Positions 4,192 through 14,805 of a stretch of DNA of 64,000 nt are shown piece by piece. The stretch lies in assembly GCA_030699125.1 (NCBI GenBank), contig JAUYKM010000009.1:6358-70357 (forward strand). Reading direction: 5' to 3'. The DNA comes from Candidatus Daviesbacteria bacterium (lineage in GTDB: Bacteria; Patescibacteriota; Microgenomatia; Daviesbacterales; UBA10151). How positions within the stretch are numbered: position 1 is the first letter of the stretch; each line of letters opens with the position of its first letter. Both the position numbers and the translations under genes were made by a program. The notes beneath the pieces were generated by a model. That model saw only the letters and a list, made by a program, of their open reading frames with translations, ran no database searches and was not told the DNA's origin.

Positions 4192-5562
4192 TTAATCTAT
4201 ATGCTGAATTTTTTCAAGTAAATAATCTCTCTTATTCTTTGTAGAATCTTCTAAGACTTCCTCAAAAAGTTTTTGGAGGATCTCTCCCACTTTTGGGCCG
4301 GGCTTAATGTTTAAAACTTTCATCACATCATGGCCATCCACTTTTAAATCAGCAATGGAAAATGGTTTTTTCAAAACTTGTTTAATTTTTTCTTTAAATT
4401 TTTCCATCCTCCATGATGTTTCTCTCTGTGTTCCTCCACCTAATCTATCACCAACTCGAAGAGCCATCATATCTTCGATATTTTCCAACCTCACATTTTT
4501 TATAAAACGCCTGATGGCAGAATCTGTTTGATCTTCATTAACAGAAAACATATGCCACCTGATTAATCTATAGAGCTTTTCAGTTTGTTTTTTAGATAGA
4601 TTAAATCTTTTGGCAATCTTCCTAGCTATATTTGCGCCCACCACATCATGTTGATAGAATGTGACATTGCCATCCTCTTGAGTGGAGACTGTATCAGGTT
4701 TACCAACATCATGGAGCAAGGCGGCAAATTTGGTAAGAGGATCATCTGATGGAGCATATTTGAGAGTAAGTAGGGAGTGTTCGCCAATATCATAGACTCT
4801 GTCATGTTTTGGTCCCTCCTGTTTAAGACCAAAACACCCCTCAAGTTCCGGCAAAATAATTTGCAGTATCCCCGCCTCCCTAAGTTTAACTATACCTATG
4901 TATGAACTGCTAGATGCAAGAATCTTGAAAAGTTCATCCCTGACTCTTTCATTGGCGATTTCTTTTAAAAGATGGGCATTTTTTGTGATAGCTGCAAAAG
5001 TTTTTTTCTCTATATCAAAACCCAATTCTGTGGCAAATCGAATGGCACGAATAAGACGTAGGGCATCTTCTTGGAACCTTTTCTGTGGATCACCCACAGC
5101 TCTAATGATTTTGTCTTTAATATCATCTTGACCATGGAATGGATCAGTTAATTGGATCCCCCGATTAAATCGGGGGATGACAGAGGCGGCAATGGCATTA
5201 ATAGTAAAATCCCTGCGAGCTAAATCTTCCTCAATATTATCTGTCCAGGAAAGCTTATCCGGATGACGGTGATCTTTATATATTCCCTCTTTTCTCATGG
5301 TGGTGATTTCAAAAATTCCATCACCACTATCAAACCCAACTGTACCAAACTTATTATCATAAAATCCCTCAGGAATCACTTTTAAAATCTCCTCCGGTTT
5401 TGCATCAGTGGTAAAATCCCAGTCCTTGACCTGCTTTTTCGTTAAAAGATCTCGGACTGCCCCTCCCACTATGTAAATTTGAAAGTTGGCTTTTTGAAAT
5501 TTATCTAAAATATTTTTTACTCTGGAAGGTAGTGTATAATCGTTCATGATTTCATCATTCAC
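4192..5562 (-). CDS. cca: CCA tRNA nucleotidyltransferase (polymerase beta-type head plus HD domain)
   Basis: IVGGAVRDLLTKK..DWDFTT nucleotidyltransferase head, RRDFTINA motif and a downstream HD-domain LHDVGKP. Confidence 0.85.
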   Translation of the reverse strand: MNDEIMNDYTLPSRVKNILDKFQKANFQIYIVGGAVRDLLTKKQVKDWDFTTDAKPEEILKVIPEGFYDNKFGTVGFDSGDGIFEITTMRKEGIYKDHRHPDKLSWTDNIEEDLARRDFTINAIAASVIPRFNRGIQLTDPFHGQDDIKDKIIRAVGDPQKRFQEDALRLIRAIRFATELGFDIEKKTFAAITKNAHLLKEIANERVRDELFKILASSSSYIGIVKLREAGILQIILPELEGCFGLKQEGPKHDRVYDIGEHSLLTLKYAPSDDPLTKFAALLHDVGKPDTVSTQEDGNVTFYQHDVVGANIARKIAKRFNLSKKQTEKLYRLIRWHMFSVNEDQTDSAIRRFIKNVRLENIEDMMALRVGDRLGGGTQRETSWRMEKFKEKIKQVLKKPFSIADLKVDGHDVMKVLNIKPGPKVGEILQKLFEEVLEDSTKNKRDYLLEKIQHID

Positions 5563-5617
5563 TTCTTGTAACGCGTTGCGTTATAATCGTTCATGTTGTA
5601 ATTGTATCTTTAAGTGT

Positions 5618-7222
5618 ATGAAATGGAAAGTATTACCCAAAAAGTCCGATGATTTAGTGGAGCAGTTACTGGCAAACAGGGGAATTAAAACTACTCAAGA
5701 AAAAGAGCAATTTTTTCATCCCAAAATTTCAGATTACGAGAAGGATATTGATATTGCCGGAATAAAAAAGGCACAGGAAAGAATAAAAAAAGCAATAAAA
5801 AATAATGAACTAATTATTGTTTATGGAGATTATGATGTAGATGGAATATGCGGCTGCGCTTGTCTTTATAAAGCACTAACTTCAATTGGAGCAAAAGTTT
5901 TGCCTTATATTCCACATAGAGAAAAAGAAGGATATGGATTATCAAAAATAGGATTGGAGTCGGCTAAAAATTCTGGCGCCCGGTTAATAATAACTGTTGA
6001 TAATGGCATAGTTGCCAATCCTCAAGCAGACTATGCAAAAATTTTAGGCCTGGATTTAATTATTACTGATCACCATATTCCGGCAAAAATTAAACCGGAC
6101 GCTTATGAAATAATTCATTCTACCAAGATGTGTGGAGCCGCTGTTGGTTGGTGTCTTATCCGAGGATTAATAAAAAAGGATTTGGCAACAGAATTGTTGC
6201 AATTTGTTTGCCTTGCCACCATCTGTGATGTGATGCTTCTTTTGGAAGTTAATAGAGCATATGTTTCGGAAGGTTTGAAAATTTTAAACCGGACAACTAA
6301 TTTAGGATTATTATCTTTAATCAATGAATCAGGATTAAGACTTGGGAATATTGGTTCTTATGAGATAGGTCACGTTTTAGGGCCAAGATTGAATGCTATG
6401 GGAAGATTGGAAAATGCCATGGATTCATTAAGACTTCTTTGCACCAAAGATCCTCAAAGGGCCAGAAATTTGGCAAGACTTTTGTGTAAGACTAATACCA
6501 GTCGCCAAAAAATGACCGAAGAAGCAGTTGAAGAAGCACATGTTTTAGTGAATAAAGGAATCAGTGTACAGGTATTACATTCTAAAAAATGGTCCATGGG
6601 AATTGTGGGACTGATTGCTGGAAGAATTGCCGAAAGCTACTCTCGTCCTACCATAGCAATTTCAGTGGGAGAAACTGTTGCTAAGGGATCAGCCAGATCT
6701 GTTAATGGAGTAAATATAGTTGAGTTTATCAGAAATTTTTCCGATATTTTAATTGATGTGGGAGGGCATCCGCAAGCTGCTGGTTTTTCGCTGGAGTCTA
6801 AAAATGTGACAATCTTTAAAAGAAGAGTAGAAGAATATATTTTGGAATTACCTGAAGAAGGAGAAAAAGTTTTAGAAATAGATGCAGAAGTTGAAACTAA
6901 ACAAATTAGTAAGGGTTTAATTGAACAGATATCTAAGTTTGAACCATTTGGTGTTAAAAATCCTAGGCCCATTTTTGCAACTTATAAAATGCAAATTTCA
7001 GATATTAGAACAGTAGGATTGGGGAAACATCTAAAGTTTAAAGCGAATAATATAGACGCTATTGCCTTTGGCATGGGGGAGATGGAATCGCTACTGGCTA
7101 ATGGGCAGCAAATTCACCCTGAGCGAAGTCGAAGGGTAGATTTGGCTTATACACCAGAAATTGATAGTTACAATGATTTTGAAAAACTACAACTAAAAGT
7201 AAAGGATATTCGCATTAGTTAA
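5618..7222 (+). CDS. recJ: Single-stranded-DNA-specific exonuclease RecJ (DHH/DHHA1)
   Basis: DHH motifs YGDYDVDG and ITDHH, plus a DHHA1 GGH motif. The track ORF starts at 5546 and overlaps cca, so I prefer the internal start MKWKVLPKK at 5618. Confidence 0.8.
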   Translation: MKWKVLPKKSDDLVEQLLANRGIKTTQEKEQFFHPKISDYEKDIDIAGIKKAQERIKKAIKNNELIIVYGDYDVDGICGCACLYKALTSIGAKVLPYIPHREKEGYGLSKIGLESAKNSGARLIITVDNGIVANPQADYAKILGLDLIITDHHIPAKIKPDAYEIIHSTKMCGAAVGWCLIRGLIKKDLATELLQFVCLATICDVMLLLEVNRAYVSEGLKILNRTTNLGLLSLINESGLRLGNIGSYEIGHVLGPRLNAMGRLENAMDSLRLLCTKDPQRARNLARLLCKTNTSRQKMTEEAVEEAHVLVNKGISVQVLHSKKWSMGIVGLIAGRIAESYSRPTIAISVGETVAKGSARSVNGVNIVEFIRNFSDILIDVGGHPQAAGFSLESKNVTIFKRRVEEYILELPEEGEKVLEIDAEVETKQISKGLIEQISKFEPFGVKNPRPIFATYKMQISDIRTVGLGKHLKFKANNIDAIAFGMGEMESLLANGQQIHPERSRRVDLAYTPEIDSYNDFEKLQLKVKDIRIS

Positions 7223-7239
7223 TTTCTGTTTCTGGTTGT

Positions 7240-7446
7240 TTATCTATAATTTAATGACTTACCAGTACTGATATCCATAAATCGTCCTGGCGCAACTCGT
7301 ACGACAGATCTAGTCGGATCTAAGTTTATAGGTTGAGTCACTTTTTGAATAACTTGTTGCTTTGTTGCTTCCTCTGGTTTTCTACCAACTTGACTTTTCC
7401 TAGAAACAAATCCCATAACTCCTCCGGTTTGTTCTAACTCTAGCAT
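7240..7446 (-). CDS. Small hypothetical protein (68 aa), island gene P1
   Basis: Strong SD: the reverse complement reads ATGAAAGGAGGTGAATAATA-ATG. Preceded by its own promoter and a leader with two hairpins. Confidence 0.45.
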   Translation of the reverse strand: MLELEQTGGVMGFVSRKSQVGRKPEEATKQQVIQKVTQPINLDPTRSVVRVAPGRFMDISTGKSLNYR

Positions 7447-7478
7447 TATTATTCACCTCCTTTCATATTCTTTCCACT

Positions 7479-7500
7479 AAAAAACCTCCCATTTGGGAGG
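7479..7500 (-). terminator. Hairpin plus U-run (CCUCCCAAAUGGGAGG-UUUUUU on the minus strand) in the leader of P1
   Basis: Perfect 6-bp GC stem followed by six U. Near-identical copy at 8188..8210. Confidence 0.5.
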
Positions 7501-7605
7501 CTTAAATTTTGCAAAAGGTTTTAAATAAACCTTATGACAAAACGCCTCCCTTCCGGGAAGTAATAATTCCAATAATTTGTATACTTTTATTTTTCACGTT
7601 TTTAG

Positions 7606-7635
7606 ATATTAACATGAATAACCAATTGCTGTCAA
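7606..7635 (-). promoter_or_regulatory. Sigma70-like promoter for P1 (TTGACA-17-TAATAT on the minus strand)
   Basis: -35 at 7630-7635 and -10 at 7606-7611 with a 17-nt spacer, just downstream of the P2 stop. Confidence 0.4.
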
Positions 7636-7640
7636 AAAAA

Positions 7641-7982
7641 TTATTTTGTTTTCCTTAGTCTTTGACGATAAGTTTGGATTTCTGTCATTAGAGTTGTAAG
7701 TGTAAGTCTTCCATATTGCTCAGGTTTACTACCCCAACAAACTACTCTTTCTAAAACTTCAGCCATTCTGTCTACAGCATTGAATGGGTTTTCTATATGA
7801 ACAAATCCTTCTGGCTCTGCTCCTTCAGCATGAGGAGTATTTGCCAAAGCACTATACGCTATTCCATTTGCTCTGTTTACAATAATTCCAGCATGGGGTT
7901 CGCCTTTTTTGGCAATAGACTTCATTCTTCTTTTAATCAATTGGATTTCCTCCAATCCTATTCCTTTAATTTCTTCTACCAT
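7641..7982 (-). CDS. Small hypothetical protein (113 aa), island gene P2
   Basis: SD GAAAGGAGGTG lies 7 nt upstream of the ATG. Translationally close to P3, with a 16-nt gap. Confidence 0.5.
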   Translation of the reverse strand: MVEEIKGIGLEEIQLIKRRMKSIAKKGEPHAGIIVNRANGIAYSALANTPHAEGAEPEGFVHIENPFNAVDRMAEVLERVVCWGSKPEQYGRLTLTTLMTEIQTYRQRLRKTK

Positions 7983-7998
7983 TTTTAAACACCTCCTT

Positions 7999-8187
7999 TC
8001 ATTTTTTTCTTATATCTCTCGCATCAAAATCGGGAATCCAACCACGTTGTCCGTTAAGAGATCTTTCCAGTGCATATCTTCCTGCTACAGATCTTGGATC
8101 ATTCCCACATTCTTCTAACATTTGCAAATATCTTTGGCTAGGTTGCTGACAAAATTGTAAACTGGTTTCTAATTCTCTCATTGCCAT
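7999..8187 (-). CDS. Small hypothetical protein (62 aa), island gene P3
   Basis: The ATG sits 3 nt after a terminator-like hairpin whose 3' arm, GGGAGG, is the SD. Confidence 0.45.
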   Translation of the reverse strand: MAMRELETSLQFCQQPSQRYLQMLEECGNDPRSVAGRYALERSLNGQRGWIPDFDARDIRKK

Positions 8188-8210
8188 AAAAAAACCTCCC
8201 GTTTGGGAGG
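8188..8210 (-). terminator. SD-sequestering hairpin plus U7 immediately 5' of the P3 start codon (attenuator-like)
   Basis: Minus strand reads CCTCCCAAACGGGAGG-TTTTTTT-ATG. Copy of the 7479..7500 element. Confidence 0.5.
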
Positions 8211-8361
8211 TCTACTTCCTTTCTCTTTTAGAAGTTTATCTAAAAGGACCTCCCGGAAAGATCTCCCAAAAGGAGATCTAAATTAAGGAGATTAATTAAA
8301 ATATTTGAACTGTTGATCATTTTAATAAAAAACTACAAGCCAGTGCTCATAGAATAAATAA

Positions 8362-8391
8362 ATTATAAGGGCAGTTAAGGCAGTTTGTCAA
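8362..8391 (-). promoter_or_regulatory. Sigma70-like promoter (TTGACA-17-TTATAAT on the minus strand) driving the P3-P2 leader
   Basis: -35 at 8386-8391 and -10 at 8362-8368 with a 17-nt spacer. Overlaps the 3' end of P4. Confidence 0.45.
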
Positions 8392-8581
8392 CTGATTGAT
8401 TATACAGTACTTTATAAGGGCTATACACCTCATTTATTCCATTCCACTGGAAGGTAGCAGTGAAGCCATTTCTTGGATTAGTATAAGTTACAACCTCATT
8501 GTGCTGATGACCTAAAGGACTATTTTTAGGAACTCTTGGTTCTGTATAATTTCCAACATCTTTTATAGCTTCAAGTGTCAT
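8375..8581 (-). CDS. Small hypothetical protein (68 aa), island gene P4
   Basis: SD AGAAAGGAGGAG lies 8 nt upstream of the ATG. Divergent from aspS. Confidence 0.45.
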   Translation of the reverse strand: MTLEAIKDVGNYTEPRVPKNSPLGHQHNEVVTYTNPRNGFTATFQWNGINEVYSPYKVLYNQSVDKLP

Positions 8582-8778
8582 ATTTATCTCCTCCTTTCTT
8601 CAACTAAAAACCCCCGCTTGATATAAGTCGGAGGTCGATATTAAGTTGATTTTTTACCAAAACCAACCTCCGCTTAAGCGAAGGTAAAGAAGAAGTTAAA
8701 ATTTCTTCTTTGGTTTTGCATGAAGAATAATTTATCAGCAAAATCAAGCCTTGTCAAGAGTAAAGTTTTACTGCTATT

Positions 8779-10128
8779 ATGCAAGATATGCAGAATCGCA
8801 CGTTAATTTTGGATTGTAAAGAAAAAATTGGTCAAGATGTAGTCATCTGTGGATTTGTTCAAGTCAGACGTGACCATGGAAAAATTTTATTTCTTGATGT
8901 TGCTGATAGATCTGGAATTATTCAGGTCGTTTTAGGTGGAGGTAAGGGAACTGATTTAAGGCCTCAAGATGTAGTTAAAATTTCTGGCAAGGTTAATAAA
9001 AGACCAGAACATATGGTCAACAAAAATATCCCCACTGGTGAAATAGAAATTTATTCGGAAAAGTTGGAAGTTTTATCAAAAGCGCAGGAATTGCCATTTG
9101 ACATGGGAGGAAAAGATTTAGATCTACAACTCCCAACACTTTTAGATTTCAGGTCCTTAACTTTACGTCACCCAAAAGTTAAAGCAATTTTTAAAGTTCA
9201 AGCTGCAATTTTGGATGGATTCAGAAAAGCCGCAAAAGATTTAGGGTGTACAGAAATTATAGCCCCTACTATTGTGGCCGGGGCCACAGAAGGAGGAGCA
9301 GAGGTTTTCAAAATTGATTATTTTGAACACAAAGCTTATCTTTCCCAGTCCCCTCAACTTTATAAACAAATGTTAGTTCCTGTATATGAGCGGGTTTTCA
9401 CAATAGCCAAAGCTTATAGAGCTGAACCTTCTGTTACAACAAGACATCTAACAGAAGCAACTCAAATGGATGTGGAAATGGGTTTTGTGGAATTTGAAGA
9501 TTTGCTGGATGGTCTGGAGGGAGTTGCTACCAAGATGTTAAAAATAGCAGAAGAAGAGCAATCGGAAGATTTAAAAGAATTCGGTGTTGAAAAAATTGCT
9601 TTTGGCGGAATTCCAAGACTGACATTAAGAGAAGCTCAGGAGGTAATAAAAAAAGAATTTGGACGGGATAATACCAAAGAGAAGGATTTAACTCCGCAAG
9701 ATGAAACAGATCTTTGTAAGTGGGCTTTACTAAAACATAAATCTGACTTTGTAACAGTGACTCATTTTCCAACTTCTGCTAAGCCGTTTTATACAAAACC
9801 AGATCCAAAGGATCCGGAGTATTCGCTTAGTTATGACTTACTTTTTAGAGGAGTGGAAATTTTAAGTGGTAGTCAGCGTATTAATGATTATCAGCAACTT
9901 TTGGATAGTATAAAAAAACGTGGAATGAATCCTGAAAATTTTGAAATGTATCTACAAGCTTTTAAGTATGGTATGCCTCCAGAAGGTGGATTTTCTTTCG
10001 GATTAGAAAGAGTCACCATGCATGTTTTAGGCTTGGCAAATATTAGACAAGCATCTCTTTTTCCCAGAGATATGGAAAGAGTGGATATAAGATTAACTCA
10101 AAACTCAAAACTCAAAACTCAAAAGTGA
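8779..10128 (+). CDS. aspS: Aspartate--tRNA ligase, archaeal/eukaryal type (possibly non-discriminating Asp/Asn)
   Basis: 449 aa class IIb. ATEGGAEVF, QSPQLYKQ, EMYLQAFKYGMPPEGGFSFGLERV and LFPRD match archaeal-type AspRS motifs. Confidence 0.75.
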   Translation: MQDMQNRTLILDCKEKIGQDVVICGFVQVRRDHGKILFLDVADRSGIIQVVLGGGKGTDLRPQDVVKISGKVNKRPEHMVNKNIPTGEIEIYSEKLEVLSKAQELPFDMGGKDLDLQLPTLLDFRSLTLRHPKVKAIFKVQAAILDGFRKAAKDLGCTEIIAPTIVAGATEGGAEVFKIDYFEHKAYLSQSPQLYKQMLVPVYERVFTIAKAYRAEPSVTTRHLTEATQMDVEMGFVEFEDLLDGLEGVATKMLKIAEEEQSEDLKEFGVEKIAFGGIPRLTLREAQEVIKKEFGRDNTKEKDLTPQDETDLCKWALLKHKSDFVTVTHFPTSAKPFYTKPDPKDPEYSLSYDLLFRGVEILSGSQRINDYQQLLDSIKKRGMNPENFEMYLQAFKYGMPPEGGFSFGLERVTMHVLGLANIRQASLFPRDMERVDIRLTQNSKLKTQK

Positions 10129-14327: not shown

Positions 14328-14642
14328 GTGATAAATCCAGAAATAGCTAATAAGTGGATTTTGAGAACAAGAAAAGGATTTGATGTGACTATAGACTCTA
14401 GGGATAGTATGGAAGGCCTATCTTGGGATATATTACGAAAATGGCAAAAAGAATTTCAAGAGGATTTTTGCAAAGATTGCATAAATTTCGACTTAGATAG
14501 ACAATATTTTATTAACAAAGACCACCCAAATAATCTACAGGATTGTATTTCTCATTGGACAGATATTGTTGGGGTATGTTGGAATTTTAAACACCGGGTA
14601 ACCGGGGAAAGCATTGATCAACTATTACGGAGTTTTAAATAA
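14328..14642 (+). CDS. Hypothetical protein (104 aa, Cys/His/Trp-rich)
   Basis: ORF followed by a GC hairpin terminator. Confidence 0.35.
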   Translation: MINPEIANKWILRTRKGFDVTIDSRDSMEGLSWDILRKWQKEFQEDFCKDCINFDLDRQYFINKDHPNNLQDCISHWTDIVGVCWNFKHRVTGESIDQLLRSFK

Positions 14643-14668
14643 TCTAAATCTATCAACCCACAAAAAAA

Positions 14669-14690
14669 CTCGCGCGAGGCGAGTTTTCTT
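14669..14690 (+). terminator. Intrinsic terminator built from a GC-rich CGAGGCGAG-family palindrome (CTCGCGCGAGGCGAG followed by TTTTCTT)
   Basis: Stem CTCGC/GCGAG, then a T-run. The same motif is inserted inside two CDSs elsewhere in the window. Confidence 0.5.
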
Positions 14691-14805
14691 GCAAACTTGC
14701 TATTATACAAGCAACAAAATTTATAACAGAATGAAATTTTCCCGTCAAGTATAACAAACCGGATCATCTATTTACTATTGGGTTTTTACTATTTAAAATG
14801 AGTCT

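Follow-up and report, generated by a model that had tools for sequence, protein, structure and literature searches.

Three probable leader-peptide attenuators of a stereotyped family precede orphan small genes in the recJ-aspS gap of a Candidatus Daviesbacteria contig

How are the four small genes controlled that lie between recJ and aspS in a Candidatus Daviesbacteria genome, and why do they carry ribosome-binding signals that most of their neighbors lack? The genes, called P1 to P4 here, are four minus-strand open reading frames (ORFs) that lie in the gap bounded by the plus-strand genes recJ (5546-7222) and aspS (8779-10128) in a 64,000-nucleotide stretch of contig JAUYKM010000009.1, which we refer to as the window; in the metagenome-assembled genome they are annotated as hypothetical proteins Q8P92_01155 to Q8P92_01170. 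An earlier note on this DNA had correctly placed four minus-strand ORFs between recJ and aspS and had described an island of riboregulator-like leaders. We conclude that the island probably consists of three ribosome-mediated (leader-peptide) transcription attenuators, members of a stereotyped family found in related Microgenomates. The evidence on the leaders and on the family is computational throughout and comprises the anatomy of the leaders, their alternative folds, their conservation and covariation and, in relatives, the match between the leader residue and the enzyme encoded downstream. The mechanism is a known one, in a stereotyped form that here would control orphan small proteins.

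Three promoter-plus-leader units make up the island on the minus strand, at 8757-8582 (L4, before P4), 8391-8188 (L3, before P3 and P2) and 7635-7447 (L1, before P1). The leaders of P3 and P1 had been recognized in the earlier note and are real, as are their sigma70-like promoters at 8391-8362 (12/12 match) and 7635-7606 (10/12 match); a third promoter and leader, before P4, had been overlooked. The riboregulation had also been left unexplained, and it had been missed that every leader holds a short ORF rich in one amino acid, phenylalanine (Phe) in L4, leucine (Leu) in L3 and isoleucine (Ile) in L1, placed as for classical leader-peptide attenuation. The codons cluster as FNFFFTF in L4, LINLLNLDLLL in L3 and IQIIGII in L1; the clusters are conserved in homologous leaders, and all three leader ORFs are without a Shine-Dalgarno sequence (SD). 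Mutually exclusive terminator and antiterminator folds, which the earlier note had proposed to look for, are present in all three leaders: prefix folds, masked folds and helix covariation reveal competing 1:2, 2:3 and 3:4 pairings of four RNA segments, in which 3:4 together with a U-tract is an intrinsic terminator.

The fold z-scores of the three leaders against shuffled controls were -5.2, -4.2 and -3.4, and positions 6500-9500 contain 12 terminator-like sites compared with 2.2 ± 1.8 in shuffles (approximately fivefold). The near-identical elements CCTCCC-AAAC/T-GGGAGG-U6-7 noticed earlier occur at 8210-8188 and 7500-7479 on the minus strand and are the sole two such sites in the window; the looser pattern CCTCCC-N4-GGGAGG-T5 is likewise found only at 8210-8190 and 7500-7480 across the 64 kb, with 0.00 occurrences expected from shuffles.

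L3 begins with a promoter of sequence TTGACA-18-TATAAT (8362..8391, minus strand). Its Leu leader ORF (MINSSNILINLLNLDLLLGDLSGRSF and a stop codon; 8240..8320, minus strand) has 8 Leu codons and has Leu-rich homologs at the related loci L003, L126, L127, L128, L082, L118, L045 and L050 (loci in other assemblies are given by three-digit L numbers). Segment 1 is split in this leader: its part A (AUCUCCU) pairs with D (GGGAGGUC), the two flanking an inner hairpin B:C, and E (GACCUCCC) and F (GGGAGGU-U7) follow. The anti-antiterminator A:D (8247..8292, minus strand; AUCUCCU with GGGAGGU) encloses B:C (AGATCTCC-TTTT-GGGAGATCT, 8279-8259, minus strand), and helices 1 and 2 each have 7 pairs changed on both sides in the covariation test described below. 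The antiterminator D:E (8205..8254, minus strand), in which GGGAGGUC pairs with GACCUCCC at -16.2 kcal/mol, encloses a middle hairpin at 8246-8225 (helix 3 in the same test). The terminator E:F (8188..8212, minus strand) reads GACCUCCC-AAAC-GGGAGGU followed by U7, at -14.4 kcal/mol. Its 3' arm is the SD of P3, so that termination and SD masking are coupled, as had been claimed; the distance to the ATG is 7 nucleotides (nt), where 3 nt had been given. The hairpin AGATCTCC-TTTT-GGGAGATCT, previously put forward as the alternative partner in this switch, does exist, but the competitor for the CCUCCC arm is GGGAGGUC (8254-8247) and not the AGAUCUCC hairpin. A further hairpin with U6 (8328..8352, minus strand) overlaps a short ORF that starts at ATG 8350, encodes MSTGL and ends at TAG 8333; comparison with L127, L082 and L126 indicates that this ATG is homologous to the leaderless Leu-leader start of the relatives. 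The hairpin may be the terminator of P4. The -35 box TTGACA of L3 lies within conserved Val-Asp-Lys codons of the P4 C-terminus in all three genomes compared (8386-8391 in the window, approximately 948-953 in L127 and 881-886 in L128).

The promoter of L1 (7606..7635, minus strand) reads TTGACA-18-TAATAT with TG ahead of the -10 box. The Ile leader ORF (MKNKSIQIIGIITSRKGGVLS and a stop codon; 7532..7597, minus strand) opens with GUG (GTG 7597), 8 nt past the -10 box TAATAT. Segments 1 and 2 form CUUCCC-GGAA-GGGAGG (7545..7560, minus strand); the antiterminator 2:3 (7495..7550, minus strand) pairs GGGAGGCGUUUUG with CAAAAU...GCCUCCC around a hairpin at 7533-7515 at -15.8 kcal/mol; and the terminator 3:4 (7479..7503, minus strand) reads GCCUCCC-AAAU-GGGAGGU followed by U6, at -13.9 kcal/mol. 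A mini-ORF, MERI (GUG-GAA-AGA-AUA-UGA; 7449..7477, minus strand), starts 7 nt past the terminator arm and is followed by the ribosome-binding-site (RBS) module AAAGGAGGUG and an 'MKGGE' string. The leader of locus L075, MIIKLEEIIIGIITSRKGGVLS with its stop codon, is 91% identical to L1 over 114 nt and drives an HMGL-like synthase of the citramalate/isopropylmalate type (branched-chain amino-acid biosynthesis). P1 as a remnant of such a biosynthetic gene was considered and dropped, as it shows no similarity to the gene behind L075 in any frame.

L4 has a promoter (TTGACA-17-TAAATT with TG ahead of the -10 box; 8729..8757, minus strand; 10/12 match) that is conserved in L127 and L128. The Phe leader ORF (MQNQRRNFNFFFTFA and a stop codon; 8674..8721, minus strand) starts at ATG 8721, only 7 nt past the -10 box TAAATT, so the messenger RNA (mRNA) is probably leaderless. 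Segments 1:2 form the hairpin ACCUUCGC-UUAA-GCGGAGGU (8666..8685, minus strand) with the leader stop codon UAA in the loop. In the antiterminator 2:3 (8629..8673, minus strand) GCGGAGGU and an extension pair with ACCUCCG, the duplex amounting to -18.5 kcal/mol, and the terminator 3:4 (ACCUCCG...CGGGGGU then U5; 8606..8635, minus strand) has -13.4 kcal/mol; its 3' arm reads CGGAGGU in L127 and L128. A mini-ORF, MKKGGDKYDT (8571..8603, minus strand), starts with UUG 7 nt past the terminator arm and spans both the P4 SD (8597-8588) and the P4 start codon. At locus L109 (4270-4400, minus strand), an L4-type 1:2/2:3/3:4 cassette follows a long ORF ending in ...KFTFA and a stop codon, an ordinary gene end in the role of a leader peptide.

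We propose that these parts work as follows. The transcript would begin at, or a few nucleotides ahead of, the start codon of a sensor ORF of 15-26 codons, which would probably be translated leaderless. If charged transfer RNA (tRNA) for Phe (L4), Leu (L3) or Ile (L1) were scarce, the ribosome would stall on the codon cluster, cover segment 1 and free segment 2 (GGGAGG or CGGAGG); segment 2 could then pair with segment 3 (CCUCCC or CCUCCG) once this was made, the 3:4 terminator would not form, and transcription would read through into P4, P3-P2 or P1. If the tRNA were plentiful, the ribosome would run to the stop codon at or just past segment 2 and mask it, 3:4 would form with its U-tract and transcription would end. 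Segment 4 would in addition serve as an SD for a start codon 7 nt on, that of P3 in L3 and that of a mini-ORF in L1 (GUG GAA AGA AUA UGA) and L4 (UUG...), so that transcripts with 3:4 would also be translationally silent at that start; in the predicted folds segment 4 (GGGAGG), the SD of P3 or of the mini-ORFs, is paired in the terminator state only. We infer where transcripts begin, that the sensor ORFs are translated leaderless, how the leaders answer to starvation and what the four small proteins do.

The positions of codons and segments agree with such a mechanism. Counted from the first base of segment 2, Ile codons of L1 occupy -32, -26, -23, -17 and -14, followed by a stop codon at +16; in L4, Phe codons range from -27 to -9 and the stop falls at -3; and in L3, Leu codons span -45 to -6, with the stop at +12. 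By these coordinates, by the distribution in the family and by the modeled folds, a stalled ribosome would sit on segment 1 and leave segment 2 exposed, and one that has reached the stop codon would occlude segment 2. To model a ribosome, we deleted all RNA as far as 12 nt beyond the A-site codon and folded the remainder. When the modeled ribosome occupies the Phe, Leu or Ile cluster and segment 4 is not yet made, the remaining RNA of all three leaders folds into the 2:3 antiterminator, and with the ribosome at the leader stop codon it folds into the terminator. As the transcript grows, its predicted fold changes from 1:2 to 2:3 upon synthesis of segment 3, and finally to 3:4. In each leader the 2:3 duplex is stronger than the terminator, and in L1 the antiterminator stays the minimum-energy fold even with segment 4 present.

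The leaders recur in relatives. Profile and single-protein searches returned three homologs of P3 and two of P4, and their contigs led to further, mostly syntenic loci (L054, L126, L127, L128 and L082). The Phe leader is kept, with very little change, at the syntenic aspS-recJ loci L127 (MTNQRRNFNFFFTFA), L128 (MQNLRRNFSFFFAFA) and L082 (MQNQKRNFNFFFTFA), where substitutions spare the Phe codons and the 3' arm of the terminator varies. The Leu leader is kept at L003, L126, L127, L128 and L082 and is in relatives a Leu-rich ORF of approximately 30-34 codons, for example MSKTLSLKINSLLLSLLLLGLLLGAFVGGLFR with its stop codon in L127. All P3 homologs stand directly behind a Leu-rich leader, including that of L125, which lies in a different genomic context, and all P4 homologs stand behind a Phe leader. 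The inner hairpin of the Leu leader has fully changed in sequence yet remains paired (AGAUCUCC/GGGAGAUCU, GUCACCA/UGGUGGC, AGCGCC/GGCGCU and UGCUCC/GGAGCA). As a side observation, the aspS-recJ gap of the window and of L003, L054, L082, L126, L127 and L128 is a conserved site of variable content, in which the same Phe and Leu leaders are paired with different small genes: P4 or a 61-aa (amino acid) ORF, and P3 or ORFs of 58, 60, 72 and 71 aa.

The covariation in related loci that the earlier note had called for was assessed with a covariance model built from nine L3-type leaders, which scores L3 at 121 bits and L1 at 42 bits. Misaligned columns in the raw MAFFT alignment hid the inner hairpins from RNAalifold; realignment with the covariance model solved this. 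In the resulting alignment of 28 leaders, 91% of the cells are paired, compared with 75% in shuffles, and 25/32 pairs have changed on both sides, compared with 13.8 ± 1.9 (0/500 shuffles reach 25), although the alignment was fitted to the model and these figures are thus supportive and not independent. Slid-partner controls on the same alignment gave 50-64% paired.

We scanned metagenomes with the pattern GGGAGG-N30-60-CCTCCC-N4-GGGAGGTTTT, which already contained segments 2, 3 and 4, and at least 120 stretches matched. After removal of duplicates, at least 115 distinct members remained, mostly on low-GC (guanine plus cytosine) contigs, several of them from groundwater assemblies; the members with an organism name belong to Roizmanbacteria and Gottesmanbacteria, which, judging by name, we take to be Microgenomates like Daviesbacteria. 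The following figures refer to the matches listed. Most have an ATG-started ORF of 20-35 codons with a run of a single residue, ending 8-35 nt past the initial G of segment 2. Relative to segment 2, regulatory codons are most frequent at -30 to -15, the last one having a median position of -14.5 and the stop codon one of +16. A segment complementary to GGGAGG lies just upstream (segment 1) in 65%, compared with 6% of controls. A good -10 box ends 6-12 nt ahead of the leader start in 44/82, SD-like motifs ahead of that start are confined to 4/82, and a start codon lies 7-8 nt past the terminator GGGAGG in approximately 93/122. The 2:3 extensions beyond the fixed core co-vary, with a duplex energy of -5.26 compared with -2.86 ± 0.14 kcal/mol for shuffled partners; this duplex-energy test was used since a gapless test of the extension was weak because bulges vary between leaders. 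The 2:3 covariation, segment 1, the codon geometry, the -10 box and the downstream start all lie outside the scan pattern, and at the level of sequence they support the attenuation model.

These comparisons bear on the simplest reading, that the hairpins are ordinary terminators of upstream genes without an alternative fold, and the short ORFs chance products of AT-rich sequence, with no regulation at all. It is true that the genome is AT-rich, with a GC content of 38%, so that Phe, Ile and Leu codons are common, and that every terminator does lie downstream of another gene. However, alternative folds exist, every set of hairpins follows a conserved promoter of its own, and the leaders are retained, with covarying stems, at loci whose proteins share only 36-75% identity. 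CCTCCC-N4-GGGAGG occurs nowhere else in the 64-kb window, and the antiterminator extensions co-vary. The comparative data already contradict this reading, to which we give next to no chance.

Among the matches listed, the leader residue also fits the Pfam family encoded downstream. Leaders with CCC precede PALP proteins of the cysteine synthase type (L013, L060), those with TTTT precede AA_kinase with ACT (aspartokinase; L089, L038), and a TTTTTT leader precedes a class II aminoacyl-tRNA synthetase core with HGTP_anticodon (L124). FYFFYFY is found before DAHP_synth_1 (L005), YYWHY before Aminotran_1_2 (L025, L033) and SSSS before HAD with 2-Hacid_dh and ACT (L057). Leu/Val-rich leaders precede thiamine pyrophosphate (TPP) enzymes of the acetolactate synthase type (L053) and Aminotran_4 (L040), an MMM leader precedes an aminotransferase (Aminotran_1_2; L012), and a methionine-rich leader (MMETM) precedes SAM_HAT (L058). 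At least nine residue classes are used in the family. Separately, we observed that proteins behind the attenuators are often purged of the sensed residue: a protein of 446 aa resembling threonyl-tRNA synthetase (ThrRS) behind the TTTTTT leader of L124 (572-1909, plus strand) has zero threonine (Thr), and further residue-poor cases, at L031, L108 and L009, are a 262-aa protein with 1 Thr behind a Thr leader, an 82-aa protein with no Phe behind a Phe leader and a 386-aa protein with 2 methionines behind a Met leader.

The match between residue and enzyme also speaks to the possibility that the short ORFs encode functional small peptides, membrane-active or toxin-like (of the LLGLLILV... type), and that the hairpins control these peptides or the stability of the mRNA. 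The L3-type peptides of relatives (MSK..IDLKRVEILLGLLILVLIASAFLGGLFR) do resemble a single transmembrane helix and share more than their Leu residues. The L3 peptide of the window is not transmembrane-like, however; across the family only the single-residue run is common, its identity tracking the downstream pathway; and the peptides end within the switch at a fixed distance. We judge a function of the peptides themselves highly improbable.

Attenuation by leader peptides was described in the enterobacterial systems trpL, pheL/pheA, pheM/pheST, leuL, ilvL, ivbL, thrL and hisL. The island leaders share with them a leader ORF with clustered sensed codons, 1:2, 2:3 and 3:4 pairing with 3:4 as an intrinsic terminator, a stop codon beside segment 2 and the same logic of stalled versus terminating ribosome; as in pheST control, one family member (L124) precedes an aminoacyl-tRNA synthetase. 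Unlike them, the Microgenomates leader ORF is apparently leaderless, with a -10 box ending 7-8 nt ahead (7 nt in L4, 8 nt in L1) and no SD; segments 2, 3 and 4 are a nearly fixed GGGAGG/CCUCCC/GGGAGG cassette, whose segment 4 is an SD placed 7 nt ahead of a start codon; and the host is a candidate-phyla-radiation bacterium in which the targets within the window are orphan small proteins and not biosynthetic operons.

The leaders can also be compared with the mycobacterial 'ribulon', in which a ribosome stalled in the polycysteine tract of a leaderless short ORF prevents an RNA structure that sequesters the downstream RBS; this mechanism was described as translational only and for cysteine, many loci sharing the one sensed residue (Canestrari et al., bioRxiv 10.1101/834739). 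In both systems, short ORFs at many loci, apparently leaderless in the Microgenomates as well, carry consecutive codons for one residue, and stalling would unmask a downstream RBS, and the predicted folds of the island leaders likewise have a stalled ribosome preventing the RBS-sequestering structure. The Microgenomates leaders differ in having a canonical terminator and U-tract besides the SD masking and in covering at least nine residue classes, and the sequences are unrelated. Full-text literature searches linking Patescibacteria, candidate phyla radiation or Microgenomates with leader-peptide attenuation returned nothing, and in the literature searched we found no description of the stereotyped attenuator form or of a large family of this kind.

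Among RNA families, nothing in Rfam matched the window at the gathering threshold. The sole near-matches were to Phe_leader (RF01859), whose gathering score is 55 bits: 8185-8303 scored 32.5 bits and 7476-7592 scored 31.0 bits, with poor alignment over the remainder of the model. They arise because the terminator consensus of that family, GCCUCCC-AAcc-GGGAGGC-U6, is nearly that of the L3 and L1 terminators; RF01859 did not match L4, the actual Phe leader of the island. The T-box covariance model gave no match in 6500-9500 even at E-values up to 5. The island leaders resemble T-box leaders in their input, the charging of one tRNA species, and in their output, terminator versus antiterminator upstream of amino-acid genes and synthetases, but they have no specifier loop or T-box sequence, and sensing in the island would proceed via translation of the leader ORF. 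Another reading is that antitermination depends on a trans factor and not on a translating ribosome, such as a T-box-like contact with uncharged tRNA or an RNA-binding protein, possibly one of P1-P4 in a feedback loop. Direct repeats (AAUUAUU twice in L1, AUCUCCUU twice in L3) and the presence of small proteins without assigned function could be taken in its favor. In frame, however, the repeats translate as Ile-Ile and Leu-Leu; neither the T-box nor any other Rfam family matched; and in relatives, unrelated genes are driven by the same leaders, an argument against gene-specific autoregulation. We give a trans factor only the slightest chance.

Several observations weigh against leader-peptide attenuation, or at least against its simplest form, in addition to the fitting of the covariation alignment to its model and the presence of segments 2 to 4 in the scan pattern. 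Equilibrium folds of L3 and L4 that include segment 4 favor the terminator even with a stalled ribosome, so that read-through would depend, as classically modeled, on the order of synthesis and folding. Until segment 4 emerges, 2:3 is the minimum-energy fold even of ribosome-free RNA, which leaves the default state uncertain. L3 is interrupted in the window: ATG 8350 meets an in-frame TAG at 8335-8333, and the Leu-rich ORF must restart in the same frame at ATG 8320, 12 nt past the TAG and without an SD; the leader may be decaying, or may depend on re-initiation. L1 would require a leaderless GUG start. In L4, a 9-bp hairpin (8711-8686) has the Phe codons as its 3' arm, and the close similarity of the four L4-type leaders leaves constraint on the peptide and constraint on the RNA inseparable. 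As for the products, P1-P4 have no visible tie to amino-acid metabolism, and their depletion in the sensed residue is mild and not significant.

The translation signals of the island raise a separate question. Duplexes of the SDs with CACCUCCUUU reach -11.5 to -16.2 kcal/mol for the island genes, whereas the median best value for the 53 other ORFs of the window is -4.0 kcal/mol. The earlier note was therefore right that the island SDs are far stronger than those of the neighbors; the sequence AGGAGGTG, however, is found in P1 and P2 only, P4 having AAAGGAGGAG and P3 GGGAGG. Most ORFs of the window have a weak SD or none, and several have a -10-like box immediately ahead of the start codon; this sequence pattern suggests that leaderless mRNAs are common in this genome. 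Strong SDs in the island make sense because genes behind a leader must be initiated internally, while most genes seem SD-poor and are perhaps leaderless.

The string ATGAAAGGAGGTG in the 5' untranslated regions of P1 and P2 occurs twice in the window, at 8002-7990 and 7466-7454, with 0 copies expected. The earlier note had read it as creating 5-codon upstream ORFs (uORFs), MKGGE and MKGGV. As judged from the sequences, it is best read as the stop codon UGA of an upstream ORF, the mini-ORF in L1 and P3 at the P3-P2 junction, joined to the RBS module AAAGGAGGUG; the junction (7985..8002, minus strand) consists of the P3 stop UGA, AAAGGAGGUG and the 'MKGGV' string. Among relatives, UGAAAGGAGG is found at 16 distinct sites, with A before UGA at 10/16, and the ATG-started frame over the module varies: few are short, others are long, and others again are in frame with the gene or lie within the upstream ORF. 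We rejected the 5-codon uORFs as a regulatory element, as they are not conserved as short ORFs in relatives; by comparison of these sites the conserved element appears to be the RBS module UGAAAGGAGGUGA, and the uORFs its by-products. The recurrent module may simply be extended anti-SD complementarity. In L127, an orphan AUGAAAGGAGG module follows the 58-aa gene just before recJ, the position that P2 occupies in the window.

The earlier view, that the leaders are cis riboregulators answering to some other trigger (temperature, a ligand or free 30S subunits), with coupled terminator formation and SD sequestration, initiation modulated by the MKGGE and MKGGV uORFs and no sensing leader peptide, draws on the SD-like GGGAGG in the terminator 3' arm with a start codon 7 nt downstream, on the two copies of ATGAAAGGAGGTG, and on the several GGGAGG and CCUCCC copies, which might conceivably bind 30S subunits or titrate them. 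It leaves unexplained the amino-acid-specific ORFs, the fixed geometry and the match of leader residue and enzyme in relatives; relatives do not keep the frame across the RBS module as a short uORF, and no riboswitch or thermosensor family scores above threshold. We consider it improbable.

What the leaders control in the window remains a set of proteins without recognized family, as had been stated earlier: P1-P4 have no match in Pfam, PHROGs or NCBIfam. P4 (8581-8375, minus strand; 68 aa) has two homologs, both behind the same Phe leader, and P3 (8187-7999, minus strand; 62 aa) has three, each directly behind a Leu-rich leader; the predicted model of P3 (predicted local distance difference test score, pLDDT, 65) was too poor for a structure search. 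P2 (7982-7641, minus strand; 113 aa) has no leader of its own, directly follows P3 and would be co-transcribed with it. Its single detectable homolog among 1.84 billion representatives (E-value 9.5e-8, 36% identity) lies in a syntenic aspS-recJ gap behind an L3 homolog. The AlphaFold model of P2 is a four-helix bundle (pLDDT 79) and has no match in the PDB at an E-value <1. P1 (7446-7240, minus strand; 68 aa) is an orphan, no homolog having been found by a word-index query with concatenated P4+P3+P2+P1 that is blind even to P1-P4 themselves, with no exhaustive search aimed at P1. A contig scan with RecJ gave one match, an unrelated Spirochaetaceae locus. Looking beyond the window, 38 of the 39 small ORFs downstream of attenuators in L003-L119 have no Pfam match and one matches ParB_N; together with P1-P4 they form few sequence families, each tied to a single leader type.

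Elsewhere in the window, at 14660-14770 on the minus strand, a promoter-like TTGACG-17-TATAAA is followed by approximately 60 nt with a hairpin (UUGCUUGUAUAAUAGCAAG) and then by CUCGC-CUCGC-GCGAG, U7 and GUGG, with no ORF after it on that strand. The palindrome could terminate the plus-strand gene at 14328-14642, and the element may be a small RNA or a bidirectional terminator.

Bacteria of the candidate phyla radiation are generally regarded as auxotrophic. If leader-peptide attenuation operates as proposed, such presumed auxotrophs would still sense the shortage of single amino acids through translation. We speculate further, as a possibility that we hold at somewhat under an even chance, that Microgenomates monitor the charging of single tRNAs with a modular leaderless cassette that runs residue-specific starvation regulons, comprising unannotated small proteins such as P1-P4 and residue-purged enzymes such as the Thr-free ThrRS-like protein; that the aspS-recJ gap is an exchange hot spot for cassettes and small genes; and that the small proteins may constitute, in obligate symbionts, a new class of effectors of starvation for single amino acids. 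The design would add a compact form to the attenuation repertoire, in which the sensor ORF would be leaderless, the GGGAGG/CCUCCC/GGGAGG switch fixed and one arm of the terminator at the same time an SD; it could serve synthetic biology. For the family itself, a simple sequence signature would tell which amino acid induces a 'hypothetical' small protein upon its depletion, a rare functional handle on dark-matter genes.

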